A model generated the notes under the pieces. It searched no databases and was not told where the DNA came from. It saw only the letters and a list, made by a program, of their open reading frames with translations. Positions 6,001 to 51,000 of a DNA stretch of 64,000 nt are shown one piece after another. Position 1 is the stretch's first letter, and each line of letters opens with the position of its first letter. A program made the position numbers and the translations under genes. This DNA comes from Paraspadella gotoi (lineage: Eukaryota > Animalia > Chaetognatha), in contig CM119269.1 in the NCBI GenBank assembly GCA_051294375.1, forward strand, positions 10,227,056-10,291,055. Direction: 5' to 3'.

Positions 6001-9000
6001 CCTAATTAATTAATTAATATGAATAATTTTATTAATTACCGATAATGATCGTAGGCAGGTCTGAAAATGTTTGCTCAAACTTGTTCTCCTATCACCCTCC
6101 ATATTTCTCCAAAATTTTGTAATTTCTTATTACACTAAATTAGTGTAAATTATTACATTCATCACAGATTACATTATAAAGATTACCAACCAGAATCGTC
6201 AAGTTAAAGGTATTTTAAATGATAATGGGTATAAACAAATATGAAACATATCCACAAGCATATCATTAAATACTCTCTAGGTTAAAACAACCAATTATTT
6301 TTAATATTATATGAACTGTGCAGCACTGACTTTCTGTAATTTCATAACTACATACCACATAGAAATGCGGTCATGTGATAACAAAAATATTCATATGTAC
6401 TTAATGCGGAAGTATCATTTTATGATAACTTAATTTTCGGTAAAATATCATCAACGATAATGATATGAAATAGGTATACTAACGATATAATATATATAGG
6501 ACAAGCACATTATCAAGGTATCATGTAACACATTGCACAGTGCATGCAAGTATGCATATTAAGCATCTCATCGTACACAACTTTGTAACAAAATGATTGA
6601 GAAGTATTAAACTTATAAACACTTAAAACATTAGGATTGACCAATCGACGGACCAACAGAATAAACCGAAAACAAGTCGGATCTGCCCATTATCGGTAAT
6701 TAATTAATTAATAATTAAATTATTCAAGTTAATTAATTTGATCCCAAATGTTTGTTTTTAGGTCTTTTCGTCACTAACCACGACAAAAGCGATTACGATG
6801 AGAATAATGCCAATAACGATTGACCTGACTGACTTATTAATTAATTATTGATTAATTAATTGACTAATTGATTAATTAACTGATTATTTATTTGATTTAT
6901 TAAAACATACAAAAGGAAAAAAAAGCATAATCAATTATTGAAACAGGTTTTTTGTTTTTTTCTATTTAAACTCATTTCCACTCAAACGATTCCATCGAAA
7001 CTTGATTTCCTGCTCAATCACACACTTTCCTACCCACACAAAATTTAAGGTCAATCGCGCCATCCACTCAAGAGCAATTGGTGTTCAAATAGTGAAATAT
7101 ATTTTTTTTGTTTTTTCCATTTAAACTCATTCCATTCGGACGATTCCATCAAAAATCCATATCCAGCTCTATCAAACACTTCCCTACCCACACACAAAAT
7201 TTTATTCCAATCCATCCATCCAATCACGAGTAATTGGTGTTTTTTGTCTAAGGTGAGACGGACGATATTCTGACATGATATAAGTTAGTGCCCGACAATA
7301 TTGAGGGGGCGGACCGACGGACCGACAAAGTGAATTATAGAGTCGGGATCTGTTGATAAGCAGATCCAACTAAAAATATTGGCAAATATTACTTTCGCCG
7401 ACCGGGGTTTTGTCGTCTTTTGAAAAACCACTTAAAAATACTTATTTCTAAAAAAAATGAAAAACAAAAATTATTACCCAATTACCCTAACCCTAAACCC
7501 TCTTAACCCTAAAAACCCCCTAATTCTAAACCACCCCTAAAAACCCCCCTAACCCCGGTTGGCGAAAGTAAATGCCAAAATATTAGCGACGCAACTAAAA
7601 ATAGAAAACGCTGGTCCTCCGCACCTGCATCCTCTGAGCAAAGGCCCTCAACAGCCTTGGATCCTGCCTCAGTTCATCGAAGACTAGAACAGAAAGTTGA
7701 TTTTCGATTTCCGACTCTGTTTTGGGCGGAATGACTCGGTTGGCGGACTCGGGCGGTGGAGGCCGCGAGGGGGGAGAACCGACAGGTTCACCACCGCGAT
7801 TCGCGCCTGTTGTGTGGATGTTGCTCTCGTAAAGGGAATAATTACGGTCGTTATGAGGACTTCGCGGAGGCGCGCTTTCGTAATCGGTGATGGAACGTTC
7901 GCGACGCTGTTCATTCGATCTGGAGGAAAAAGAGTGGTTACGCTTGTTAGAGAGCAAAGAACAACTTTAGTTAGGGGTAGCCCTACTCGATCATTAATGA
8001 GAAACTCATAATATCTAATAGGCCGAATAAAAAGGGGGAATGGATAATTTTTTTGGGGATTAAGGTCATATTGTATGATTGTTTTTATCATGAGGATATG
8101 ACTAGTATGACTACCTTGTAGAATCGTATGTTCTGATAGGGATACAAACTGGGGATAGTTTGTATGTAATTTTTCTAATGTAATTTTAAAGTATATGTTA
8201 AAATATTTTTTGAGTTTTTTGATATTTTTCTAAGTTTCTATTCATATTTCTATATCATTTTTTAAGTAAAATAGAAAGGTCAGTTGGGAACCTATAAACT
8301 TCTTAACTTCTATTTCTTAATATATATTTTTTTTCTTTGTTGTATCAAACCACGGTAAGGTTTGGTTAAGCGTGGTTGGGGTAATATTCGAACTACTTTT
8401 TTTTTAAATTATTTTTCGATAAGCGGGTCAAAAATAAAAAAAACTATAAAAAATCATAATCTTTCCATGATTTTATCTGTTTTTTAATATTTTTGTTAAG
8501 CAAGGTAATCATTTTTTAAAGCTGTAATTATATTTTTTGTTTAAATTTTTTTGCTTTATCAGAATCTATCTAAAAAATTTTGGTTTTCAAAAATCTTTTT
8601 TTCATCATATAAGACAAGATAGCTTATTTATTAAATGAATGAATAATTTTATATTGGTTGTACCAATTTCATAGTAATATAATAATTTTAATTAGGCGAG
8701 TACCCTCAGAAAAAAACATTTTTGACAAAAAAAATTTTGATACTATAATCTATGCTGACAATAGATTTTAATGCTGTATACATTAGCATTTAAATTTGAT
8801 CGGCAATGGCTACTTTCGTCAATAGTCATACTCGTCCTGCTTCATCCTCCTTTGAGATTGTGCCCGTGCGACTTCCGCAACAGAAGACGAAAGTCTAGAA
8901 GATATTTCCACTAAAAAAAATAAAGAAATATTAAATATCCGCAAATAAAAATAAATAGCAACAAAAGAAAAATATATCTAAACCCAATAGTGCAATAGTT

Positions 9001-12000
9001 AATATTTGGATAAATAATATCTGTCGAATATTCAATTATAGAATATGTATCCGATCTTACTCTTTTGATCCTCTTGGTCTAAGTAGATGCTTGGATTTGG
9101 CTTCCAACCGTCATCGAAAACAGGAAAGTATGGAGCCGCATAGCCCGTCCATCGATCTTTACTTACGTACCAAGTCTCCCCAAGCGACATCCACAAGTGG
9201 TGCTCGCGAGAAGTCAAGCAATTTGACAGCAAGTCTGACAGAATATACAGAAGGCTTAATATTAATTATTATAAAATGTGGTACCCCTTTTTTGTGACCA
9301 GAATCTGTTCCCACCCAACTACCGGATCGAATTTCATGAAATTTTACATTTAGAGTTCTAATGACAATATAAATGGAACTATCCAGGCGAATTTTAATAT
9401 TCAGCCCCTGACAAGAGATACAGGGCCCTGGGCAGGCTAAATTTTTCTTTTTCATTTTTTAGAATTTTTTTAGTAGAATCAGGTTCTTTGATGTTTTAAA
9501 CATAAAAATATTTTTTAAAACTAAAATTAATAATTTTTTTGCTAATTAATCGGTGTTTGAAGATGCATGGTTCATCGTTTTTCTCCAAATTTTCCAGAAT
9601 TATTCCAAATCTGACTTGAACAGCTGATGTTCATGAAGCTGAAACTTATGGTAAACTAATATTTTTGTGGAAATAAATACAATTTTGTGGAAGAGTAAAC
9701 GTCTGGGCAACTGTTCAAAAAAAAAAAAAAAAAAAAAAAAAGTTTTGACTATTTTTTGCCCTTATGAGTGACCCCTACCGGGCCCCATATCTCGGCTCAG
9801 GGGTCAAATATTGAAATTCGCCTCAATATTTCAATCTGTATTCACATAGAGATCGTTCATACAAAATTTCATTAAAATCTATTAAATAGTTTTCTCGGAA
9901 CGTGTTCTGGTCACAAAAAGGGGTACCACATTTTATAATATGAAGCCTTCTGTATAATATACAGAAAGATTTATATTATAAAATGAAGTTGAGGTTTTTT
10001 GTGAACAGAATCTGTTCCGCAAAATCTACGAGATCCAATTAATTGAAATTTGATATAAACGATCCCTATGTAAATACAAATATAACTATCGAGGCGAATT
10101 TAAATATTTGACCCCTGAACCGAGATATGGGCCCCGGGGAGTCACCCAAAGGGGCAAAAAAAATGATAATTTTTTTTAAAAACATACGAGACGTTTACTC
10201 TTTCACAAAAACGTTTTTATTACTATGGCAACAGCCTCAGTGAGGACTCGTCTCACTGGCGCGGTTACCCTAGGACGGTCTCGCTTTGCCAACGCAGAGA
10301 GAAGTTGTTTGGACTGTGGATGGAACACAACGCCTGGGATGGTTCGTTCCACCTCTGAGCCAATGGGATTGGCTGAACGATGGTGGATGTGAGGCGGTGT
10401 GAATATACCACCACATTATCTTAATTTTTTGGTTCAGATTTTGAATATTCTGGAAAATTGGAAGTAAAACAATTTTTAATTAGCAAAAAATTAACTTAAT
10501 AAAAGGGCTTTATTAAGTGTTTAAGATGCTACTAAAAGAAAGAAAAAAACTTTTTAGCCTTCTTTTGGTCCGCCCAGGGGTCCAGGCACAGGGCCCTGTA
10601 TCTCCACTCAGAGGTTGAATATCAAAATTCGCCTCGTCATTAGAACACTGCGTAAAATTTCATAAAATTCGATCAATTCTGGTCACACGATCCCACTTTA
10701 TAATATGAAGCTTCTGTATTCAATTAAAAATAAAATTCTTTCATCATGTCTCGTGTTTCACTTCGTAATTAATGGTATTTATTACATTCTTGCTTAAAAA
10801 CTATTCTCACCTACTGCTTCCTTTATGAGCAACGGCGATACTACACCGCTTCCTAGCGGAACACCAGTCTTCGGATTTTTTGACGCTTCCATAACGAGCG
10901 ACAATGGTGTGAAGAGAAAATGAACCAATTCAGGAGAATTCGGATTGTGTATGTGGGGCTGTGTGAAATATAAAAATAATTTTAAGTAATATCTAAAGGC
11001 CTTGTAAAATATTCTTAAATATTGCCCGTTTCGTCACCATTGTTATTATATCATTATCCCCACCACTGGTCCTCCCAGTTATTTATGAAATTCTTGGTTA
11101 ACTAATGACCAACCTTGAGTTTTGCCAAAAGGTTGAAACAGAGTTTGAATTTCTTAAAAACTTTCTCAAATTCGGGCTCTTGTGGTGGAAGCGTCTGCGA
11201 GAGCAGCTGTTCTATTGCGTCCTTGTCCTTCTTGCTCTGGCGGTGAAACCCGGATTTTTTCTTTTTTTGACGATTTTCCAACTCTTTGTAGGCCTCGGAA
11301 ACGCGCTGAATAAAAGGAGAAAAATATTCAGAAAAATATTCAGATAAAAATATACTGCTGCAAGAAAGTTAACAGTTCTGGAGATGATACGTTGGATATA
11401 TCCTGCTTCTCTATCCTACATTTTCACTTATCAGGGAAATTGCATTGCAGTAGTCATTATCATTTGTCTTGATTTTCAAAAAAATTTTTAAATATTTTGT
11501 AAAGAAATGGGCGCTAAAAAATTTGACACGTTATGAAAAAAGCATCAGTTATAGGAGTTGCCATTAGATTTTTTTAACATTCATGATATCGATCGAACGA
11601 AAAATGAACCGTTTTTGTGCTGTAAGCACTTTGAAGTAAGTTCCATTAGAGCTGGACCTACCTGTATGATTAAGTACACAGACCTGCAACCTGGCGACGA
11701 ATGATTCAATGTCGTCGAAGCATTTGTTAAGCATGGTGACATCGTGGTCGACTCGTTCAACTTCGTTCGGCTCTCGAAGAGCGCCATCGACCCGAGGCTT
11801 AGTTCCAGAGAGGGCCGTATCATCACCGACATCTCGCAAGGTCGTTGACACGCTGGGGTGAGAGCCAAAGGGAGAGTAGAAGCGGGAACGGCGTGAAATA
11901 GTGCGAGGACGACGCACAGGAGAAAGCATAATTCAATATTGATATATTGACCAAATTCAACCTTAAAGCCTTTTATGTACAGCCCAGATTTGTCAATAAA

Positions 12001-13894: not shown

Positions 13895-14744
13895 AATAGA
13901 AAAAGTTGTGACTATTGGGCGATCGTGTTGTCGGGGCTTAATTTGAAAAGGAGAAAAATATCATAAATTAAAATTATTAAAACGGAATAATCGATATTTT
14001 TTCAATAATGAATTTCCAGTTATTATTACGATTTAGATTAAACAACTCACCGAAAAATTAAAATTTGCGATTTGGATGTAACTGGACAAATCGGTTCGTG
14101 TACCATACTAGAATAGAAAAGTGATCGATGTAAAAGCGGTCACGGGACAGGATAGGCGGCCTCCATTTAAAACGTTCCGATTTCGAGAGGCTGAGGCAGA
14201 TTAAGACGTAAATATTTTTTTTCAAATTCTTCACAAATAACAAGTAAAAAAAAATCAAATTCATGTATCATTTGATAAAAACGCGGAAAAGGTAGAACCA
14301 CCCATTGTTTTCCTAACGGAGACAAACAAACACTCGGATTGAAGGAGGAGATTTCGGTCGACGTCAGACTCCGAGCAAATTCGCTTTCGACGGGGACGAC
14401 GACGACTCGATTCAACAGAGCGAAATTCCAGAGAGAGAGAGAGAGAGAGAGAGAAGAGAAGAGAGAGATCTCAACGGGGCTTATTTATAGAATTAGAAGG
14501 ATAGGAACAGAGGGCGATCCTGGATTTCAATACGCTTGGGAGGCTCATGGGAAAATAAAAAAAAGATAAAAAAATTAAGTTTATTTCTTTACGAAAAATA
14601 AACATTAAAACCGTGACAACAATGATTTTAATAAAAACGCTGAATTTATCGGATAAGCTACACAGTCGAAAGATTTTTATTATATAAAATATTATTTAAA
14701 CATTATATTTTATTATAAACTTATTAATTATTATTATTAGAATA

Positions 14745-14945
14745 AAATTGGTGCAACCAATATAAAAATTATCCATTCATCTAAAAAATAAGATATCTTG
14801 CCCTTAACTTTGGACAGGTTTTGATGGTTTAAGGTCTCAATCACTTACAAGATAATGACATAGCAGGTCCCTGCAAGCTTTTAATAAAGATTCTCGCAAA
14901 GTCTCCCACCGTACCTGGTTTCCCTATCAATGAAATGGTATAATA
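14745..14945 (-). repeat. Unclassified dispersed repeat (family R4)
   Basis: Reverse complement of 24941-25157 (GATAGCTTATTTATTAAATGAATGGATAATTTTTATATTGGTTGTACCAATTTCATA end). Confidence 0.8.
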
Positions 14946-15024
14946 TTTCAAAAAATATTTTAATTGTATGAAAAGACCACTATTATAATATTATTTTTTA
15001 AAAAAATTATTTACATTATCATAT

Positions 15025-15270: not shown

Positions 15271-15914
15271 AATATTAATAAACAACAAAAATAAATATCG
15301 AAAAATTATGATAAAGCCGAATTCCTTTTTTTTCTTCCGATAAATTATCCTCCTCCGCTCCGTTTACGTTTATTCATTAAAAAAACCTTGCTCTTCGTTT
15401 TCCCAAAGACCTCTGTAGCGTAAATGACCAAATTATGGATGAAAATTTTAGCCACGGAAGGTCGTGACGACGAGTGTAAAGAACCTCCCATCCTCGACCG
15501 AGCGGAGAGGGAGAAGACGTCGGGAGAGAAACTGTACTGAAGACCGGGATCGCGGGCGCCGTAATGTTTATAAATAGACTTATCCACTGTTGAGGATGTT
15601 GATGTTGATGTTGATATTTAGTACCTTAATAAAATAATCAAAGCATATAGATATTCCATTGCTTTTGCCGAAAAGTGAAAAGACTATCTAGCGGAGAGGG
15701 AGAAAACGTCGGGACAGAAACCACCCTCAAACCCGGAGGCATCCAAGTTCTGCGAGATTTTGCAGGCCTTTCGGCATGGGTTTTTTTTTCTGGAAAGAAA
15801 AAGACAACAAAATAAATGAGGTAGTTAGGTCGTCCAAAAGGGTATCAAAATATAAAACAAAATCCGGAGAATCACAGGAATGGACTATCAAAAAAAAATT
15901 GTGACAGCTGTTGG

Positions 15915-16085: not shown

Positions 16086-16735
16086 ATCCCATTAGATGAG
16101 AGAGAGGGGATAGAAATAGAACGAGATCCAGACCAGAGCATCGTCACCGCCACCGGAGCCGGAGGATGCTCCTCCTCCTCCTCCACCTCCTCTTCCGTCT
16201 TCAATGTCGCTCTCGTCAAAACATTGTTCTTTTGTTTTCAGGATGAGCCAAATCTGACTCAGCTCAAATTAATAATAATATCTATTGTCATTATTGAATG
16301 TAAATTAGTATAAAACTTATTAACTCATTTATGTTGCTGTTTTCCTTATTTTCTTTACAGAATAAAAAATATTACTCAATTTGTACCAATAATAAGCGAA
16401 ATTACGTACGACTAGTTCGAGTTTAACTATTAAAAAACTACTGAAATATGATTAATTTCGAGTTGATGCCGCTTTGGACGACCGAATTACTATAAAGTCC
16501 AGACGACTATCTGCAACTCGGATTCTCTTTTGTCTCGGTCAAGAGAGATATCGAATTTCGTCTCATAATCGGTCTCTCGCGATTATTCATAATTCTGCTT
16601 TGAAACGGGACTCTTCCCAAAAATAATAAACGTTTGTGGACGCTTAGTGGTTTCTTCGTGGTTTGTTGAATTGTTTAATATTGCGTTGAAGAGGCTGGTT
16701 TTACAGGGCGCCACACCCGCAGCGGTGTCACCTCG

Positions 16736-16948
16736 TGGCAACAGCGAGACTGCATGTTCATGTAGTCCAGAGCTTTGGATCTGGCCGTAGGCCCTTGCCT
16801 ACAGGCGGGTTACCCGGTCCCTCCCACTTTCTACATGACAACCTCAGGGCTCGAACCAGGGACGCACATTGGGATGGTGCATTAGTCCACTGAGCCACTG
16901 AGGCGCTGCGAAAGAAACAGCTTTAATCCATCTGTGGTGATAGGACCA
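16736..16948 (-). mobile_element. tRNA-derived SINE-like element with twister ribozyme, subfamily A copy 1
   Basis: The minus strand reads A box TGGCTCAGTGG and B box GGTTCGAGCC inside a CCTCAG/CTGAGG stem, then the twister motif and a GCTGTTGCCA tail. Confidence 0.8.
16759..16837 (-). ncRNA. Putative type-P5 twister ribozyme (A1); predicted cleavage between 16812 and 16811
   Basis: CAUGUAG-AAA-GUGG-GA-GG-GACCGGG-U^AA-CCC-GCC-[UGUAGGC AAGG GCCUACG]-G-CCAGA-UCCAAAGC-UCUGG-A-CUACAUG. One T1 mismatch. Confidence 0.7.
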
Positions 16949-17079
16949 ATAGACAGCCGCCCCCAGGACTCTCACTATGAGAGTACGAAGCAGGGGATGA
17001 AGCGCATGTCTCTTTGCTGAACCTCTCTTCATTCTGGTGGCTTATGCGTTGAGTGGCAGCTGCATAGTTCAAACCACAT

Positions 17080-17281
17080 CAGCGAGACAGCATGTTCATT
17101 TAGTCCAGAGCTTTGGATCTGGCAGTAGGCCCTTGCCTACAGGCGGGTTACCCGGTCCATCCCACTTTCTACATGACAACCTCAGGGCTCGAACCAGGGA
17201 CGCACATTGGGATGGTGCATTAGTCCACTGAGGCGCTGCAAAAGAAACAGCTTTAATCCATCTGTGGTGATAGGACCACCA
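17080..17281 (-). mobile_element. tRNA-derived SINE-like element with twister ribozyme, subfamily A copy 2
   Basis: Near-identical direct repeat of 16743-16948, with an 8-nt deletion in the A-box region. Confidence 0.8.
17097..17175 (-). ncRNA. Putative type-P5 twister ribozyme (A2); predicted cleavage between 17150 and 17149
   Basis: As A1, but GA-UG gives full T1 pairing with CA of loop UCCAAAGC. Confidence 0.72.
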
Positions 17282-17547
17282 GAACGTACTTGATTAATTA
17301 ATGATTACGTCTAACCCCCCCCCCGTGTCCTGGAGGGGTTTCTTCATTACCTCATTTATGTTGTCCTTTTTCTTTCCAGAAAAACATTTTTCGAGTATAA
17401 TTATTATTAACGTTTCCGTTTTCTTTGACGTATTAAGTGTTCGTAATTTCTTTCGTGAACAATTAACAGATGCACTGCCGCGACGACCACGGAGTCAGGG
17501 GGGGCCGACACGACCGGATTCGAGATAAAATCCACTCAGAGGCCCAA

Positions 17548-17978
17548 CTCGCCTGCCTCAACCCGAAGAAGGAAGCTCCTGGTCTTCTCCCTTGATCCCT
17601 ATCTCGACCCGCCGATATCTACATCCCTAATTGGATAGACGGCCAGAAAATAGCCTTTGATGTATCCGTCGTCTCCCCTGTCCAGGAGGCCATAATCCTC
17701 CAAGCCGCCATGGCTCCTGCCGCCGCCATTGAGATGTGGAAATCTGCCAAAATGCGCGGCCATTTCGCCAACTGCCAGGCCCAAGGAATACACTTTCAGC
17801 CTCTCATAGTGGAAGCCTTCGGCGGTTGGGACAAGGAAGCCCTGACCTTTCTTAAAGCCCTTGCCCACCTTGACGATGGGGAAAAAACAATTCCTTATAA
17901 TTTAAATACTTTTTCCAATTCCTGTCCGTTGCCCTTCAACGAGGCAACGCAGACCTGCTGATAAACCGCGACTATTAA
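17548..17978 (+). mobile_element. Decayed 3' fragment of a CRE-clade non-LTR retrotransposon (restriction-like endonuclease domain)
   Basis: Translation RPADIYIPNWIDGQKIAFDVSVVSP...K..K...FQPLIVEAFGGW...FQFLSVALQRGNA, with in-frame stops and a frameshift. Confidence 0.85.
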
Positions 17979-18327
17979 CTCTCATTTTACGGCATCTTTC
18001 CTAAAATAACCTACAGGAAGGAAAAAATATATATAGTATTATATACTTGTTTAACTTAAACTTTCCTATAATAAAATCTTCATTCACGACAATATACTTT
18101 TATCGACTTTTATGACAAAATCAACATCACTCTCATTTTGACAATTACTTTTTCTTCGCGATATATTATCCTTTCTTTTTCCAGGAAAAAAAAAACAGAT
18201 TAATCATCGAGTTGATTCTTTTAAATTTTTGATGCATTTAGGTGATTATCTTCTTCTTTTTTTCTGTTATTTCGGACTACTAATGAAGCAGGAGTCCTTT
18301 TTCCAAAGTAGTCTTTTTTAATTTTTT

Positions 18328-19194: not shown

Positions 19195-27577
<8,383 letters not shown>

Positions 27578-36062: not shown

Positions 36063-38317
36063 ATGGATGTGGAAGAACGCCACGGGACTAAAACGTAAGT
36101 ACAAGAAATGGCATAATGATTTTACTGACTCTGACTTGTAAAAAATATCAATCATGAATTTGAGGCAAATTTCAGACCTGAATCTCCGGCGCCCGAGGAG
36201 ATTGTCGCCCAAGAAGAGTGTAAGTTGAAGAAGAAATTTCCCACGGCAGTACATCCGGGAGGTTCATTATTCCTACAAAAAAAACTGCTGCAGCGAGATA
36301 AAAAGTACTTTGACTCGGGCGACTACAATATGGTCAGGGGTCAGGCAGCCAAAGGGCCTCAGCCCAAGTTAAAGGTATAGTCAATTATATAATTATTTTA
36401 TTATTATTATTATTATATAGAAGTATTGTTAATTGAAGCCTTTTGAAAAAAAAAAAGGGCAAGACGATAACTGGAGAACGTTTAGTGGTACCCGACGATC
36501 CTACGGGGGAAAATCACCCTTCGCCCGACCTCATTCCGCAAAGGAAAGTGTCTGTCACCCAGTCGAAACTCGTTCAGTCACCGACGTCATCTCTTCCAGG
36601 TTAATTCAGTTTAAACTATATATGATGGCAACAGCTATGTTGCCTGTGATGCCCATTGGGATGGGGCATGTCACTGTTGACTTTGGGGGCTTCCGACCCT
36701 CAGTGACGCCTCCTGTCACTGGCGCGGTTACCCTTGGGTGGTCTCGCTTTGCCAACGCAGAGAGAAGTCGTTAGGACTGTGGATGGAACGCAATGCTTGG
36801 GTTGGGATGATGCGTGTTCCCCCTCTGAGCCAATGGGATTCGCTGAACGATGGTGGATGAGAGGCGGTGTGAATATACCGCCACAATATAATAGAATGGA
36901 GCGATCAAAAGATTGAGCAATTGAACATTATTTTTTTGATGCCTTTGTAAACTAAATTTATAAACCAATTTTATATCCTAAAAAAAATTAAAAAATGTTA
37001 TTTAAAAATTTAATATTTAAATTGCAAAAAGTGATTGAAACGTTTCAGGATTTAATAGTTTTTACTACAGAGGATAAAAAGTCCTGAATTTTTACTTTTT
37101 TTCCGGTTTTTATGTTGAAGACTGCCCAATCTTTTTTAATATGATTTATATTTTTGATCTAACTTTTTATAAGGAATCTAAATCTTTAATTAGAAACAAC
37201 TCTGATAAAATGATAAAATTAAATCTTTTGATATAAAATTTGTATTATTCTAATCCATGGACAAAGGTGTCAATTTTCCATATCAGAAAACTGTACAAAA
37301 ATCGGGTTTTTAGTCGGATCTGCTTATCAGCAGATCCCGACTCTATAATTCACTTTGTTGGTCCGTCGGTCTGCCCCCTCAATCTTGTCGGGAATCGACT
37401 TATATCAGGTCAGAATATCGAATTATGATAAATTATAGGAAAAAAATGTCTGTCTGTCCGTCCCACCTTAGCAAAAAACTTTAATTATTCGTGATTGGAT
37501 GGATGGATTGGAACGAAATTTTGTGAGTGGGTTGGAAAGTGTGTAATTGAGCTGGATATGAAATTTTGATAGCATAGTGCGAGTGGAAATGAGTTTAAAC
37601 GGAAAAAACAATAAAATATATTTCACTATTTGAACGCCAATTACTCATAAGTGGATGGGGCGATTTTATTTAAAATTTTGTATATGGGTAGAGAAGTGTG
37701 TCATTAAGCTGGAAATCAACTTTTGATGGAATCGTCTAAGTGGAAATGAGTTTATATGGAAAAATAAAAAACCAGTTTTACTAATTTATTATGCTTCTTT
37801 TTCTTAAATTAAATATTAAATATAAATGCAAGATTTATTAATTAATCAAATAATTAATCAATTAATCTATTAGTAAATTAATGAATAATTAATAAATCAG
37901 TCAATTAATAATTCAATTAATCAATTCATTTATCTATTAATTAATTATTCAATCAATCAAGTCAATCGTTATCGGCATTGTCGTCGTCGCCATCATCATC
38001 ATCGTCGTCACTTTTGTTTGAGGAAAAGACCTCAAAACAAATATTTTGGTTCAAATTAATTAATTAACTTGAATTAATAAATTAATTAATTACCGCTAAT
38101 GATCGTGGGCAGATCCGACATTGTTTGCTCAAACTTGTTCATTTTTGAGTAATAGAGAAATCCGTCGGTCAAAATAAACAGAAAATCGGAGCTACTTTTG
38201 AAAACCTTTTTTAAACTAATTTAAATAGTGTTCAGTGTACTCTTTTATTTTATAGGCACGGAGCATCCAATGATTCAACTCACACGTTCACATCCTCTTC
38301 CGGCTACCCTTAATTAA
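36063..38317 (+). CDS. ENSA: Alpha-endosulfine / ARPP-19 family protein, 4 exons
   Basis: [10 protein letters not shown]...[25 protein letters not shown] (Greatwall site FDSGDY) and [17 protein letters not shown]. The exon 2/3 junction is ambiguous (see findings). Confidence 0.93.
36625..36885 (-). mobile_element. SINE-like element with twister ribozyme, subfamily C, full length, in an ENSA intron
   Basis: 5' hairpin GGCGGT..ACCGCC, A-box-like TGGCTCAGAGG, B-box-like GTTCCATCC, twister motif, ATGCCC/GGGCAT hairpin and GCTGTTGCCA tail. Confidence 0.8.
36676..36756 (-). ncRNA. Putative type-P5 twister ribozyme (C1); predicted cleavage between 36730 and 36729
   Basis: GUUGGC-AAA-GCGA-GA-CC-ACCCAAGGG-U^AA-CCGC-GCC-[AGUGAC AGGAGGC GUCACU]-G-AGGG-UCGGAAGC-CCCC-AAA-GUCAAC. 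T1 is GG/CC. Confidence 0.75.
37306..38140 (+). mobile_element. DINE-1/Helentron-like non-autonomous element (family R1), most complete copy
   Basis: T-run flanks, 5' subTIR GTCGGATCTGC with nearby inverted copy GCAGATCCCGAC, GTCY microsatellite, duplicated core, 3' subTIR GCAGATCCGAC, then hairpin GTTTGCTCAAAC. This is the HINE/DINE-1 architecture. Confidence 0.75.
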
Positions 38318-42080: not shown

Positions 42081-45000
42081 ATGTGGACATTGGTGCCCTT
42101 GACTTTCTTACTCCCACTTACTCTGAGCGCCCCCGTCAAAAACGCCGTGCCCGCCGACCATCCCAGCGAAGATGTTGGGGATCCGAATGATGTTAAGGTG
42201 AGAAAGCAGAAGTCGCAATTGTTCAATTTCGATTTTACGGATCCGTTCAATCTTCAATTCAATTTGGCTACTTTTTCGGTATTCTATAACCAAGGTGGAC
42301 ACAGGCCTCGAGTACGACCGCTACCTCCGCGAGATCGTCTCCGTGTTGGAGCAAGACGAACAGTTTCGCCAGAAACTCGAAAACACTTCCATGGACGAAA
42401 TTAAGTCCGGAGTGATCGCCCATCAACTCGACTACGTCTCCCACAACATCCGCACCAAGCTCGATGAAATTAAGCGACGAGAGGTGACGAGGCTACGAGA
42501 CCTAGCCCGTCAGAAACGCGTGCTCGACAAGATGGGCGAGGTCCAGGCTCACGACAAGCTCTTCCCCTCTCACCTCGACCATTCCAACCCGCACACTTTC
42601 GAGACGGAGGACTTGAAGAGGCTCATTAAGGAGGCGACAAAGGACCTGGAGGAGCAAGACAAACTGAGAAAGGAGGACTTTAAAAGGTGCGAGTCAGAGG
42701 CTTTTGGCCAATTCGTTGTCGGTCTATCAATTTAAAATCTATGAACCCTCTTCTTGACCCGTGGGGAAAGGAAGACGACGTCGGGAGTAACCGTCCACTT
42801 GTCTTCTTCAAAATGAAACCTTAAAAAGTACAGAAGGCTTCATATTATAAAATGAGAGGTACCCCTTTTTTGTGACCAGAACACGTTCCGAGAAAATTAC
42901 TGGACCAAATTCATTGAAATTTGGTATGAATGAAAAATACAAATAAAACTATCGAGGCGAATTTCAATATTTGACCCCTGAGCCGAGATATGAGCCTCCA
43001 TAGGAGAGAGAAATGGTCAAAAAAAATTTTTTTATTTTTTTAACAGATGTACAAACGTTTATTCTTCGACAAAAACATATTTATTACCACAAAAATATTT
43101 GTTTACCTTAACTTTCAACTTCATGATCACAAGCTGTTGAAGTTATATTTGGAATAATTTGGGAAAATTGGAAGTAAAACGATGAACAATGAATCTTCAA
43201 ACAAAGCTTCATTATTGAAAATTTAGCAATTTTAGTTCTAAAATGTTTTTTATATGTTTAAAACGTTAATGCACCTGATTTGCTTTTTTTTGGCCTTCCG
43301 GGGGTCACCCCCAGGGCCCTGTATCTCTTGTCAGGGGTTGAATAATGAATATCAAAATTCGCCTGGATAGTTCCATTTATATCGTCATTAAATTCGATCT
43401 GATAGTTTGGTGGGAACAGATTCTGATCACAAAAAAGGGGTACCTCATTTTATAATATGAAGCCTTCTGTAAAGCGTTTGAGATATTCCTATATAAGCTA
43501 GTAAACACAAAAATTATTATGCCATAAAAAATGATTATTGAATAACAAATTAACCAGTAAACTGAACTGTTACTGCGGCACTAATAACATTTTGGTACTT
43601 AAATTTAGGGGGTATACTGAAAAATGAATAGAAAACGAATAAACTTTAATGAGTCAGAAAGCCCTTAAAAAAATGAAGAGAATGATATACTTACGAAAGC
43701 TCTAACATAAAAATTAAGCTGCCCAGTCTTGGTTTAATTAAGAGAGTCAAAAGTTAATTATCTAAAATTTTAAATCTTTTTTAAAATATATGACCCGTTT
43801 AAATTATTATAACATAAAATATTATTATTTATATAAGTATCATTAAAGAGCTTGAAAAAAAGAGATTTAAGATAGCCAATCACAATTTGATAAAAATCCT
43901 AAATTTACCCTCGAGCTATTGATTTTTGGAAAGATGTCTTGTTTTTGAGTATCCTAATTAAATTAAAGCTGGGCCGGTTAAATTTTATACTACAGTATTT
44001 GTAGGTATGTCATTCTCTTTAGATTTGAAAGGGCTTTCAGAAGATAATAATATTAATATTATTTTATTTAAAATTTCTTCAGAAAACTTACTGAAAGTAA
44101 GAGAAAAAAATTGAATCTAAAAAAAGTGAGTTGGAAAATGAAATCCGATTTTACAAGCCAAGTTTCTCCACTCATTGTCAAGGCATATCTTAACTGATCA
44201 AAATAAAATTTGAACACATAAATGATTTTAATCTTTTCTACTCAATTAATTTTTAAAATCAATGAAATAACCACTGGTTTGCAAATGACAGTGTATTTCG
44301 ATCGGCGCTTGTAAAATTGTCACCATGTAGATGGTCGTCGGTGACCAGGTTGTTGAATTCTGCCAATCCCAATAATTCCATCCCAATGGTGCGTTCTAAC
44401 CACAGTCCAAACGACTTCCCCCTGTGCTGGCAAATCGAGACCGGCTTAGGATAATCGCGCCAGGCGGCGCCACTGGGGGTTGGAAGGCCCTAAAGTCAAC
44501 AGTGAGACGCCCCATCCCAATGGGCATCACAAGTAGAGTTCCGATAACCGTTAACAGTTAACAGTTATTAAAGGTTAAAAATAATTAACCGTTAATATAT
44601 TTATTTTAACGGTTAAATTCGGTTAATTTTCAAGTATGATTTTTGTTATTTTTTTGTTATGAAAACTTTGATTTTTTAAGAGAAAAGTTTTTTTCCTGTC
44701 CTCTCTTATTCTCTCCTCTCCCTTTCTCACTATATTTTTCCCCCTGTCTCTTCTAAATTTTTTCCCTTTTTTTTCTTTTGTTATTTTCAACCCTTTAAAC
44801 TTTTTCTATCCTAATCTCTTATCATTTTTTTCTGCCCTTCCAGTATTTTTTTTAACTTACTTTTATGGTGGACTAAAATCCACCAACCGTTCATCAGCGG
44901 CCATTGGTGCCGGAGGCAAGTCATTCTCCTCCTAACCCAAAGGTCCGGGGTTCTAGCCCGGTGGCCGCCTAGCAGTTAAGAGAGACGGGGGCGCTTAACC

Positions 45001-48000
45001 CGCCTGTAACATGGTGTTACAGCCTGATCCGAAGCTCACGGACTGCTTATATTGAACGGTTCTGTCACTAACACATAACAATAATTACTGTCTCTTCACT
45101 TTCTCCTAATTGTTTTCGTTTTTCCTTTTAGCTAATTTTATACATTTACATCAAAGAATATTTTGAAATATAATATGCATCTGCATATATTTTCTTTCAA
45201 ATTAAATTCTTACATGCAATAATATTCTATTTTTATTTAAAAAAATAAATAATCTTTCTAATTTTATTTTTGATCAATCGATCATTCAACCATTCAATTA
45301 ATAAATTGATATTCATAAATAAACTTTGTTTTCTCTTGTTTACAAACAACGGGGTTTTTTTTTCATAAAACGGACATGTTTCAACTCTAGTTTTTCCGAG
45401 TCTACATCAGCGCGTGAGAGTCAAAACATGTCCGTTTTTTTTTAAATAAAAGCCCGTTGTTTGTAAACAAATAAACTTTGCTTTCACTTATCTATAAGCG
45501 CAACGAAAAGAAAGTCTTAACACAATATTCATAATTATATTTATATTTATGGTTATGGTTTATGAAAGACTAACAACAGAAAACATGCTTTCAAAAAACT
45601 AACAACTATAAAAATAATGAGGAAGAGAAATAGAAAAATAAAAAGCAAAAGAGAAAGAAAGAAAGAGAAAGAGAAAACAAAATATATACAGAATTAGAAT
45701 TACATTGTGCTTTTTATTTCATGAGTCAAAAGAAAGATTTATTATAATGCTTTATTTGATTAGCTGATGGGTAGATTCAAGATAGTTTTCTCAAACCAAT
45801 TTTCTCATTTATCAACTATAATGTGTACCTCATTTATCTGAAATAGAAGATAAAGACGATTCAGGAGCCGGAGTTAAGGAAAAAATACCATTAAATACTT
45901 TAAATATTAATATTTTAAATTTAAAGTTAAATTATAAAATTAACCGATTTTAATGGTTAACCGTTAAAAACGTTAGTTAAAAATTAACGGTTGACGGAAC
46001 CCTAATCACAAGCAACAACAAGAGAAAGAGCGCAAAATAATATCCGAATGATATTCTCGTTTTTCCTTAGATACGAAATGGACAAAGAGCATCTAAAAAG
46101 AGAAAAGTTAAAAAAACTGCCGGAAGAAGATAGGATTAAGGAAGAGAAAAGACTGGAAGAAATGGATAAAAAACACAAGGTTTGTATATAAAGTCAGGGG
46201 CAAGATAGCTTATTTATTAAATGAATGGATAATTTTTTTATTGGTTGTACCAATTTCATATAATATATATATAATATATAAATATTAAGGGAGTGGTCTT
46301 TTCATACAATTGAAACATTCTTTGAAATAGTATACCACTTCATTGACAGGGAAGCCAGGTACTCTTGAGAGTAAATAAACGAGACTGTGAGAGCTTGCAT
46401 GGACCTGCTATGTCATTATCTTGTAAGAGTGATGGAGGCCTTAAACCACCAAAGTCAGGGGCAAGATAGCTTATTTATTAAATGAATGGATAATTTTTAT
46501 ATTGGTTGTACCAATTTCATAGTATATATGATGTATAATGAGTGCAAGTGAATAGGTCTAAATGCTGACGAATTGTTTATTCCAGTGGCACAAAAGATAA
46601 ACTAAACCACTTTTAAATTCCCATAACGGGCTTCCAATTTACATAAACTGTCTCATATTATGAGTCATAATTCATAATGAGCTGCTTTTTTACTTGTCTT
46701 CTAAACGTTACCTTAACTTATCGTTTTACTTTTAGGGTAATTTCTCGTATCATTTTCTTCATGAGAAAACATGAAGATTCGTCAAAATATTAAAATACGA
46801 AAATACGAACTTATTGTCATCCGGTTTCCAGAGAAACAGATTTTACACATTTTGATTTTTTTTTTCATTTGTTTAAAGGATCACGAAAAGATCCACCATC
46901 CAGGTTCAAAGGATCAATTGGAAGAAGTTTGGGAAGAAACCGACAAACTCGACAAAAATGACTTCGACCCTAAGACTTTCTTTAAATTACACGACACAAA
47001 TGGAGACCAACATTTAGGTAACTATTATAAGGCTTACTTTTAAAGATTCCTTTAATGGAACGGGGGTAGGGGTGACGGAACGTCTGTGATGCCCGGGCTG
47101 TGAGGCATATTCCGAGCGAGGGCGATCAGTGCTTTAGACCTGCAGTGACCACCCTAGGTCACTGGCGTGTTTGTTCTAGTACCATCACACTTTCACCAGC
47201 GTGACGGTGAAGGTGTTGAGCTCGGAACTCGGGTAGAAATTGAGAACTTTGCGATCTAAGCCAATCATGACCAATTGACCATGCTATACTGATGGCGAAA
47301 TTATGTTTTCAGTAGCGCTACAAGTATTCGTATTTTCACTTATTGATAATAAGTACTTAATTCAGATATTATTGTTCAAACACTCTTGATTCTTAAGGCT
47401 TATATTTTTTGGGTTCATTTGTCTGCAATCAGAATAAAATTGGTCAGCAATAGAGATCCTATTATATTATTTCTAAATATGATTCTTTTTCATGTAACTC
47501 GGTAAACTGTAAAAATTTCAAAAAGAAAAAAAAAAATTGACATGTTTATGAAACATTGTTTAGTCATCAACCTCGTCCTGCAAAAATTGTTTTTGTTACA
47601 TAGTTTAGCTTTTTACTCTGTATTTTATCCGTCGTTGGCGACTTGATACAATAAAACTATGAGGACGATGATCCAAAGCAGCATTGTTAAGACTATGCCG
47701 TGAATAACCATTTTTTTTGCTTCCTTTCCTCGACGTTCGGCCAGTTTGTAGTTGCCTTGCAGTGCCAAAGTCTTGGATTCACTTGCACTCACCACAGCCA
47801 TGGTACCAAGACAAAGAAAGTTGCAACACAAACAAGTGATCCACGACAAAGTTAGATGATCTGAAATTTGTAAATAAATAAATGTAAATAAAACAATCTG
47901 CAAGATCTCTTATTGAAATTTACTTAAATAAAAGGACTATGATTCATACATTTCTTCTGGAATCAGGATTTTATTCAAAATTGTTGTCTATAAAATTTTC

Positions 48001-51000
48001 TATTTTATATTTGTTTGTGATGGAGGCTTTGACCCAGCAAAGCCTGTCCCAAGTCAGGAGGAAAGATAGCCCTTTTATATTGAATGAATGGATGATTTTC
48101 TTAAGGTTTTTACGAATTTCGTAGGTCGTTATTGGACGAAACATTTTACATTGTACAACGTTCTTTATTTTTTAAGACTTGATCTTCATCTCACTTCTTA
48201 TTCAGGTTTTAGGAATTTTCGCCGTTTGTTACCTCTTAATAAGTATAATGAAATATACTATAGTATATATATTATAATCTAAAAACCTCCTGTTAAATAT
48301 TTAGTTTGCTGTTATTATTGTTACCTGGAGGAATTTTTTTTTCGGGCATTTTCGGTTGATGAATGACTACCATTGGAGTCACAATTTGGTTGTATTCCAC
48401 AGATTTTTCTTCCATATCCTTCATTTCGTGGTTGAAAGATTATTCTTAAAAAATAATAATTGATAAAAAAAGTTGGTGGTTTATTTCGAATACCTACCTA
48501 AAATAAAAATGATCTGTCAATTGCCTTAATAAATTTGTTAAATATAATTAAATAGTCGTTCACGTTCCAGGGATATGCATTCGTTTCGATCAAAACCTTT
48601 TCTAATCACGTTGCCAGTTAAACAAGTCGTTCAACTTGCGAAATCACTCTGAGTAAAAAATTCCAGTGAGCGGATTAGCTGAATCGAAAGCTACCTTACG
48701 AATTCTGTTCCGAGCGTGACTTAACCAAGAGTAACGAACAATACGACCGCTCCTAGAATGTATTTTAAAATTGGATTTCCTTAACTAAAGAATAACATTT
48801 TGTCAGCCAATAAAAAAAAAAAACTTTTAAACTTTTACTTTCGCCACCCGGGGTTTTGGCCTCCTTTGAAAAACCATTAAAAAATATTTATTTTTAAAAA
48901 AACTAAAAAATTATTATCTAATTCCCCTCTTAACCCTTACAACCCCTAACGCTAAACCACACTCAACACTAAACCCCCCTCTAACCCCAGTCGGCGAAAG
49001 TAAAATTATGCTAAAAAATAGTGAAATTTAAAGAAAATAAAATAAAATCCTGATTTGATTTTTAGTTAGTTAAAAAACAATCTCGATTCAAGAAAATATT
49101 TTGATATAGTTGTGGTCGGTTATATACAAACATAATTTTGGTTTTACGAATAATATAAGACGGAAATGTACAATTTATTTTAGCTCTATATTTACATGCA
49201 TCTTTATTTCGTTGGCATAGATGAACTTGAAGTTGAAGCGTTGTTTGAGAATGAACTTTCCAAGATGTACAACGAGGATAATCCAGAAGATGATATGAAT
49301 GAAAAGGTGATTTCTATATATTTTTATAGTTTGATGTAATATTTTTATCTCAGATTTAAAGAAAATTACATTTTATTTTTGTCTGTAGGAAGAGGAACGA
49401 AACCGCATGCGTGAACACGTCTTCAATGAAATTGACAAAGACAAGGATTTTCTGATTTCCTTAGAAGAGTTCATTCGTGGAACTCAGGCTGAAGATTTCG
49501 AAAAGGATGAAGGCTGGAAGACGTTAGATGATGAAGAGGTAAACAGTCAACTGTTAAGATTTGTTTTTTAAGTTGCGCATATTTTTTGTAATGTCGGGTT
49601 GTTTGTGTTGAAACTTTGCTGAAAAGTGATCAACCATGAGACGTTTGTTATACATAAATTTCATAGTCATGTAGTCACGTGATAACAGGGAAATACACAT
49701 GAAAAGAAAGTCACAGTATGTACCGATCTTGTTGGAATTAAAACAAGTTTGAGCAAACAATGTCGGATCTGCCCACGATCATTAGCGGTAATTAATTAAT
49801 TAATTAGTTAATAAATTAATTAATTTGATCTGAAATATTTGTTATTAGGTCTTTTCGTCACTGACCACGACAAAAGCAACAAAGACAATGATGACGACGA
49901 CGATAATTATGCTGATAACGATTGACTTGATTGATTGATTATTGATTAAATAATTAATTAATAGATAACTAAATAAATTTATTGATTGAATAATTGATTG
50001 ATTAATTGACCGATTAATTTATTATTTATTAATTGACTAATTGATTAATTAATTAAATTGATTAATTAATACATCTTGCATTTACATTTAATATAAAAAG
50101 AAAAAAAAGCATAATCAATTAATGAAACAGGTTTTTTGTTTTTTCCATTTAAACTAAATTTCACTCAGACGATTCCATCGAAACTTAATTTCTAGCTTAA
50201 TCACACACTTTCCTACCCACATACAAAATTTCAAGTCAATCGCCTCCATCCACTCAAGAAATATATTTTTTGTTTTTCCATTTAAACTCTTTTCCACTCG
50301 CACGATTCCATAAAATCTTCATATCCAGCTTCCTTATCCACACACAAAATTTCATTCCAATCCATCCATCCAATCACGAGCAATTGAAGTTTTTTGCTTA
50401 GGCGAAACAGACGGACGGACATCATTTTTTTTTTTGCATAATTTATCATAATTCGATGTTCTAACATGATATAAATGACAAGATTGTGGGGGCGGACCGA
50501 CAAAGTGAATTATAGAATTATAAAATTATCGTACAATGTACAGTTACAAAGATTTGTAGCCAACTTACCAAAAAGTACATATTGAAGAGACGTAAGCCTC
50601 CCAGAAATATTTCACTTTCACAATTCTTTAGGTTCTCGCAGAGATTCTGGTTCGTTTTTTGGTAAGGAAAATGAATATGACGATAAGAAATATCGTAATG
50701 CGCTATTTATGGACTTTCCGCGCCCAATTTCTATGAAATATTACTTCCGGTTTGAGAATATGATAGGTTTTTGTTAAATATGGTTATTTATGAATGGTAT
50801 TATTGGGTTTTTTGTTATATTTGATTTAAAATACAATAATAAATTCTATAGATAGCAAATAGTAAACAAATTATTATAAATATACTATAAAATATTATAT
50901 AAATTGTTAAGTTATAATAAAAATTCTTAATTTTTTCCAAAATTTTTTATTTTCGAGTTGGTGGAAAACTGAAATGAATTTTTATTCCATCTAAAGCTAT

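Follow-up and report, generated by a model that had tools for sequence, protein, structure and literature searches.

A pair of predicted twister ribozymes in Paraspadella gotoi and the dispersed repeat family to which it appears to belong

Two direct repeats in the window (the whole 64,000-nt stretch of Paraspadella gotoi contig CM119269.1 analysed here) each carry a predicted type-P5 twister ribozyme and appear to be copies of a short dispersed element, family A. At a probability of about one in two, we favour the reading that family A is a non-autonomous retroelement family moved by a Penelope-like, probably Naiad, enzyme, and that the 338-nt spacing of the pair is likely a one-off partial tandem. 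The element family is of more interest than the 338-nt dimer itself. Coordinates are collected in Table 1.

Table 1. Features of the dimer and of the sister families in the window.
Feature	Positions	Strand	Details
Copy 1	17080..17285	-	leader, tRNA-like head without A box, twister, no tail; from alignment and contigs
Copy 2	16739..16948	-	leader minus its first 7 nt, tRNA-like head, twister; from alignment
Tail to the common 3' end of the family, 53 nt	16686..16738	-	behind copy 2 only; from depth step and loose ends
5' leader hairpin region	17255..17285	-	layout common to families A, C and D
Spacer	16949..17081	-	repetitive; elsewhere linked to a copy start, with other sequence before it; from contigs
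Predicted type-P5 twister 1	17096..17176	-	cut 17150/17149; T1 and T2 perfect; one P5 mismatch (17100)
Predicted type-P5 twister 2	16758..16838	-	cut 16812/16811; P5 perfect; one A.G mismatch in T1 (16821)
Linker replacing P1, copy 1	17151..17156	-	6 nt, self-complementary core
Linker replacing P1, copy 2	16813..16818	-	6 nt, identical to that of copy 1
Predicted released piece, 338 nt	16812..17149	-	between the two predicted cuts
A box and B box, copy 2	16847..16897	-	A 16897-16887, B 16857-16847
B box, copy 1	17185..17195	-	pattern match
Family B twisters	25053, 46420, 14840, 48017		
Family B pieces	24935-25157, 46190-46521, 48017-48123, 8615-8673; 14742-14992, 54595-54655	first four +; last two -	
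Family C twisters	36730, 44452, about 10270		
Family C elements	36625-36889, 10215-10419; 44390-44531	first two -; last +	
Family D twisters	54729, about 44990		
Family D elements	44863-45073; 54652-54861	+; -	95% alike, same ends

The two copies (17278-17077 and 16948-16739, minus strand) were 93.3% identical across 210 alignment columns, differing by six substitutions and one 8-nt indel, a deletion in copy 1. Their starts lie 338 nt apart. The first-pass annotation had described two near-identical copies in direct orientation, and this description is borne out; parsing of the fold likewise returned the two cuts it had predicted, 338 nt apart. It had also reported a GC-rich, hairpin-containing spacer of about 130 nt. 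We found 128 nt between the aligned copies, with 52% G+C against 36% for the window and a 7-bp hairpin, yet the spacer folds like its shuffles (z -0.5). The element had been drawn too short, as family A runs 53 nt past the aligned repeat and ends at 16686. The 5' end of copy 1 was taken from loose contig ends at 17283/17285 in run X6, and its 3' end from a match reaching 17080. The 338-nt piece was not unusually structured compared with shuffles, either as a linear (z -1.4) or as a circular (z -0.9) molecule. The leader hairpin showed no excess over shuffles in family A (z -0.5), against z -3.5 in family D.

On one side of the locus lies an EPS8-like gene and on the other a gene for the large subunit of an animal RNA polymerase. 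We looked for a target site duplication and for (TA)n flanks around the dimer and found neither. A 39-nt motif occurs four times nearby, at 15785-15823 (plus strand) and at 17348-17385, 16319-16365 and 18162-18189 (minus strand); two of the four form an inverted pair pointing inward on either side of the dimer region. Loose ends at 16581 and at 17308-17315 in runs X7 and X3 carry similar sequence, which suggests that an insertion of about 730 nt has interrupted a single repeat, whose halves now form the flanks of the dimer. The insertion would also hold a 73-nt piece of another repeat (16592-16664). Further out, a broken reading frame at 17470-17970 (plus strand) had no Pfam match and fell in unnamed eukaryotic clusters of the Atlas at 0.95-0.97. 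We take this fragment to resemble the C-terminal restriction-like endonuclease region of a non-LTR retrotransposon. A link between it and the dimer was rejected, as the two are on different strands and about 185 nt separate the fragment from the 5' end.

Both copies are predicted to be self-cleaving type-P5 twisters. Each could be parsed in the same order: an open P5, a short P2, the GA with one strand of T1, the linker, U^AA, T2, P3, and P4 with L4. The U^AA cleavage site and the GA general-base motif were present in both copies, in the permuted order with open P5. P5 formed 8 of 8 pairs in copy 2 and 7 of 8 in copy 1, and the pseudoknots were complete in copy 1 (T1 3/3, T2 2/2) and lacked one T1 pair in copy 2 (T1 2/3, T2 2/2). 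In the family A copies P4 comprised five pairs with L4, and P2 two pairs with a mismatch or bulge. Family A shares U^AA, the general-base GA, both pseudoknots and P4/L4 with the RF02684 type-P5 twister and with the Perere-3 T-variants described in PMC8501958. Its P3 arm also resembles the schistosome one, and its P3-P4-L4 as a whole resembles the schistosome twisters in Table 1 of that paper. Unlike RF02684, its P1 cannot form the hairpin of a type-P5 twister, being a 6-nt linker in which no hairpin is predicted, the 5' strand of its P2 has only 3 nt, and Rfam does not detect it. The Perere-3 T-variants differ from the P5 form of family A in being type P1 and lying at LINE 5' ends, according to the same source.

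Rfam recognised neither copy as a twister, with no match at the gathering threshold and RF02684 not matched, and the assignment thus rests on helix-by-helix parsing. It draws on the additional helices, on the schistosome-like P3-P4-L4 and on T1 and T2, whose letters change across families B, C and D whilst their pairing persists. The sole Rfam twister match was the family B copy at 25053, at 25.8 bits against a gathering threshold of 37.6 (E 0.32). On the dimer, neither Rfam nor ARAGORN reported a tRNA, a twister or a hammerhead, and no hammerhead or other second ribozyme was found by eye in the spacer. A loose twister descriptor gave two perfect matches, where 40 block shuffles averaged 0.2 and one of them reached two; with one mismatch allowed it matched five times against 2.0 in shuffles. 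By itself this descriptor is weak evidence for a twister. A 19-nt pattern gave three metagenome matches, none of them similar beyond the pattern. The 106 viral matches to a degenerate pattern included no homolog, and one of them (L030) passed a filter on P4 and T2 pairing. On that viral contig, the stretch L030:570-670 (minus strand) folds in the manner of a P5-type twister; its P1 hairpin is normal, and its T1 letters are those of family A.

Public contigs of family A seldom show G16821, the letter behind the T1 mismatch in copy 2, and A17100, the P5 mismatch of copy 1, would appear to be rare too, since most contigs map to copy 2 there. In the published account of a large twister test, an A.G mismatch in the longer pseudoknot was tolerated and P1 defects were without effect in type-P1 twisters, permuted forms not being the focus of that study; mismatch or bulge defects in P2 are also reported as tolerated in type-P1 twisters.

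Family A is one of four P5-type twister families in the 64-kb window. Families A, C and D, which are probably related, are built from the same parts (leader hairpin region, tRNA-like head and twister), and 5' ends match within C and within D. In family C the T1 pairing is inverted and the palindromic linker has 8 nt; downstream of its twister lies a hairpin with the same 9-nt loop as the family A head. Family B has no evident tRNA-like head. Its copies share a common 3' end, are variably truncated at the 5' end and mostly have TA-rich flanks (5 of 7 3' ends by eye; not clear for family A). One has a possible 21-nt target duplication with two mismatches, and another, truncated, is inserted at the 3' end of a family D copy. 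A truncated family B copy also stands directly before a full one at 46190/46451, 261 nt apart.

In all 10 parsed copies P1 is replaced by a linker of 6-8 nt without a predicted hairpin, a count that excludes the second family D copy and its 7-nt linker. The linkers of the four families differ in sequence, and each is near-palindromic. When each family was represented by one copy, pairing was possible at 11-12 of 13 symmetric linker positions. The corresponding test gave p values of 5e-5 to 1.4e-3 with G-U pairs and 0.001-0.015 with Watson-Crick pairs only, across three choices of the family C copy, for copies chosen after inspection and for families of which A, C and D are probably kin, with differing linkers. 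In each of the four families, the best copy has complementary letters at the innermost linker pair, which is out of reach for a hairpin. The decayed copies B14840 and C36730 pair less in the linker, and the family A linker is predicted to form a self-duplex at -8.1 kcal/mol. Penelope and amphibian (newt) hammerheads, which are reported to cleave as dimers, have a comparable palindrome in stem III. The family A ribozyme may likewise cut best with two copies paired. Against such gating, P1 is dispensable in the type-P1 twisters tested, so that by analogy monomers may cut unpaired.

Copy 2 has both internal boxes upstream of its ribozyme. Copy 1 has only the B box, the A box having been lost through the 8-nt deletion. 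A pair of A and B boxes, matched to consensus patterns, occurs once in the 64-kb window and in 3 of 200 shuffles. The proposal that the released unit would carry its own A/B-box promoter stands in so far as both boxes lie inside the 338-nt piece. It falls short in that copy 1, lacking an A box, provides no intact upstream promoter from which to transcribe that piece. No run of four T was found between 17240 and 16623, making read-through across both ribozymes possible. Unlike a tRNA-derived SINE, family A does not begin at its tRNA-like head, as a leader of about 50 nt precedes the position of the A box.

To follow the family beyond this locus, contigs of four runs (X1, X7, X3 and X6, from three studies) were compared out of ten runs with the stretch, none of them recorded as RNA. 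Run X7, which may be RNA, covers the flanks as well and so is no guide to transcription. The comparison rests on 24 of 159 loose-end records and 32 of 1092 pieces. Depth rises at 16686 and drops near 17285; between these points it is much greater than in the flanks in X1, X7 and X6. Loose ends with unlike flanks at 16686-16689 were present in at least 20 contigs in X1, at least three in X7 and at least four in X6, and those at 17283/17285 in at least three contigs in X6. Single unit contigs in X7 and X6 reached about 870 against 2-30 for locus-like contigs, and the excess was small in X3 (38 against 2-15), such depths not being copy numbers. The contigs indicate that family A occurs in many dispersed copies of about 260 nt, whose ends are fixed near 17285 and 16686. 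Its copies span the predicted cut and normally continue into the tail. Across 16686-17285, the depth excess of the element and the ratio of spacer to unit vary greatly between runs of the same labelled organism, the latter being near 0 in X6 and about 0.7 in X3.

The spacer is also repetitive, so the possibility raised in the first-pass annotation that it is unique to this locus does not hold. Among the pieces listed, spacer variants reached depths of 13,941 and 17,056 in X1 against 118-249 for locus-like contigs, 210.6 in X7 against 12.5 for the flank and 26.4 in X3 against 3.8; the spacer was nearly absent from X6. Among the matches listed from X1, X7 and X3, which span three studies, the spacer enters one and the same other sequence behind 17081. 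It does so in at least two contigs each in X1 and X7 and at least one in X3, where at least 56 nt of it are seen. The join between copy 1 and the spacer lies at 17080-17081, with a 2-nt overlap and the unit matching down to 17080. Among the contigs listed, those bridging this join were unbroken, had no differences and were of single-locus depth (227.8 in X1, 3.8 in X3). The dimer is thus confirmed in two studies, and the depth argues that the join is peculiar to the dimer locus. Only one other head-to-tail join was present among the matches listed, from 16971 back to 16689, and it was shallow (208.5 in X1, 17.5 in X7). The two joins differ from each other and each has single-locus depth. The view of 338 nt as the propagating unit is not supported by this comparison, as the other spacers listed run into different sequence, the join is of single-locus depth and most copies carry the tail. 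A junction read joining 16812 to 17149 would not be diagnostic of a circle, because ligating these ends recreates the genomic sequence.

We compared family A with the ribozyme repeats of other animals. The Sm-alpha elements of schistosomes are described in PMC6765202 as having a polymerase III promoter upstream of a self-cleaving motif that ends at the 3' end of the released unit, and as requiring tandem copies for expression of the whole unit. Family A is like them in that the boxes of copy 2 lie upstream of the ribozyme motif. It is unlike these hammerhead SINE-like repeats in having a twister and copies that are mostly dispersed, have fixed ends and extend across the cut. Animal non-LTR retrozymes are reported to carry a type I hammerhead in each tandem unit, to range from all-monomer to all-tandem families and to derive from Penelope ends (PMC7229834; bioRxiv 10.64898/2026.07.22.740005). 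Like them, family A consists of short non-coding ribozyme repeats of a few hundred nucleotides, in monomers and dimers. The amphibian retrozymes in these sources also have a weak helix capped by a palindrome, and mobilisation by Penelope is proposed for them. Unlike retrozymes, family A has a twister, 53% G+C and a tRNA-like head. As its units hold a twister and have no Rfam hammerhead match, it is not a member of either group by their hammerhead definition. The earlier idea of a twister-based analogue of Sm-alpha and the retrozymes is nonetheless supported in part, in its fold, in the distance between the cuts, in the boxes inside the piece and in the resemblance to those elements. In the open-licence literature searched, no report came up of a retrozyme built on a twister, of a twister element with a tRNA head or of twisters paired through a palindrome; this literature included what was available of PMC11662667, PMC7761336, PMC5786205, PMC11167929, PMC13725137, PMC5680766 and bioRxiv 10.1101/2022.07.19.500677.

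Naiad elements offered a further parallel in their insertions. As described in PMC8557442, these are heavily 5'-truncated, form partial tandems, carry a tail of 30-40 bp at one end and prefer (TA)n. Family A may resemble them in its partial tandem and one-sided tail (53 nt against 30-40), and family B in its TA-rich targets. Unlike Naiad, there is no coding sequence here, one short palindrome takes the place of two, and the head is tRNA-like. A scan of 120 of the 124 window frames of at least 80 codons, the other four lying in a low-complexity stretch near 56,000, gave no match to a reverse transcriptase or GIY-YIG domain. In the supplement of PMC8557442, one L4 motif occurs in five places, and three of these are close to the 3' ends of three bivalve Naiad consensuses that follow one another; a parse by eye gave all three tails a P5 twister-like fold with a palindrome directly before UAA. 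Among the matches listed for the family A and B motifs in that supplement there was no close Naiad relative, and the word 'twister' is absent from the main text as available.

The preferred mechanism is by analogy with these elements, from which mobilisation of family A by a Penelope-type enzyme is inferred. Against it count the length of the tail, the family A flanks at this locus, which are neither (TA)n nor duplicated, and the failure to find a partner among the scanned frames. Since family A copies span the cut site, they would have been made from uncut or re-ligated RNA. A Penelope enzyme is reported to insert uncut RNA as its main substrate in vitro, which would explain intact ribozymes in the copies. 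The precursor would start upstream of the internal promoter, as tandem read-through or as a circle, because the copies retain the leader; the position of the leader also argues against simple polymerase III monomers. A Penelope-type enzyme would then copy the longer or tandem transcript from a fixed 3' point, leaving mostly monomers. Through the palindromic linker, two ribozymes would pair and swap domains to form a double twister, in the manner of the Penelope and newt stem III. At the dimer locus, a tail-less copy would have been joined, probably at the 2-nt overlap, to a longer copy that breaks off inside the spacer. The 338-nt RNA could be released if transcribed from upstream, and would then be a by-product. 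A circle of the family, if it included tail, upstream piece and spacer, would measure at least about 450 nt (126 + 56 + 133 + 137).

Three other readings were weighed against this one. The family A copies might be the clipped 3' ends of an autonomous Naiad-type element with spacer, tRNA-like module and twister in its tail, the dimer being an ordinary Penelope partial tandem. The continuation of the spacer into at least 56 nt of further shared sequence would fit this, as would the twister-like folds near published Naiad 3' ends, the heavy 5' truncation and partial tandems of Naiads (both in PMC8557442) and, in family B, the fixed 3' ends, variable 5' truncation and TA-rich sites. We nevertheless consider it doubtful: the 5' ends of A, C and D match at the leader, which random truncation would not give, and none of the 120 window frames scanned gave a Naiad coding sequence. 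It is less probable still that the 338-nt piece is itself the genuine unit of a retrozyme, which would be cut out, closed into a circle and inserted again, perhaps within a subfamily of few copies. Here the distance between the predicted cuts falls inside the reported range of 150-450 nt, the boxes within the unit are intact, the spacer is repetitive, the A.G mismatch belongs to a tolerated kind and a second head-to-tail join exists (16971 to 16689, X1 and X7). That second join is a different one, however, and both joins have single-locus depth; other spacers, among the matches listed, have a different neighbour; copy 1 lacks the A box that would drive the unit; and the ligated ribozyme would unite both defects (16821 and 17100).

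An origin as a LINE-mobilised tRNA SINE, with a twister captured from an RTE 5' region, the ribozyme a passenger and the dimer a chance nested insertion or local rearrangement, seems improbable, if marginally less so than the 338-nt retrozyme unit. A tRNA head joined to an RTE-derived body is a reported SINE design, and one family B copy has the possible, imperfect 21-nt target duplication. RTE 5' ends carry twisters according to PMC8501958, and the likeness of the family A P3 arm to this RTE-linked schistosome twister points to a LINE origin, so counting against the mechanism we prefer. Yet the RTE twisters described there are of type P1 with copies starting at the cut, as opposed to a P5 form whose copies span it, and an active ribozyme would be expected from published accounts to truncate such a SINE. 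Neither the leader upstream of the promoter nor the palindromic linkers would be explained. The reading of a Penelope-moved non-autonomous family remains the one we favour.

A wider form of that reading is tentative. In it, the window would hold a tRNA-headed, Penelope-mobilised superfamily with a twister in place of the hammerhead, whose palindromic P1 forms a domain-swapped double twister and which spreads by self-promoting circular RNAs, the parent circle having at least about 450 nt; the dimer would be a shortened derivative that may release a 338-nt circle. In the portions of the literature compared, hammerheads are described from animal retrozymes and from Penelope termini, and Naiads are reported without them. 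If the wider reading is true, two unrelated ribozymes have converged on dimer-gated cleavage within one retroelement lifestyle. The four different palindromes would serve as natural controls, as homo-pairs should cut and hetero-pairs should not. The 338-nt circle itself matters less than had first been held. If the reading is true, the role of ribozymes in Penelope-type transposition becomes directly testable.
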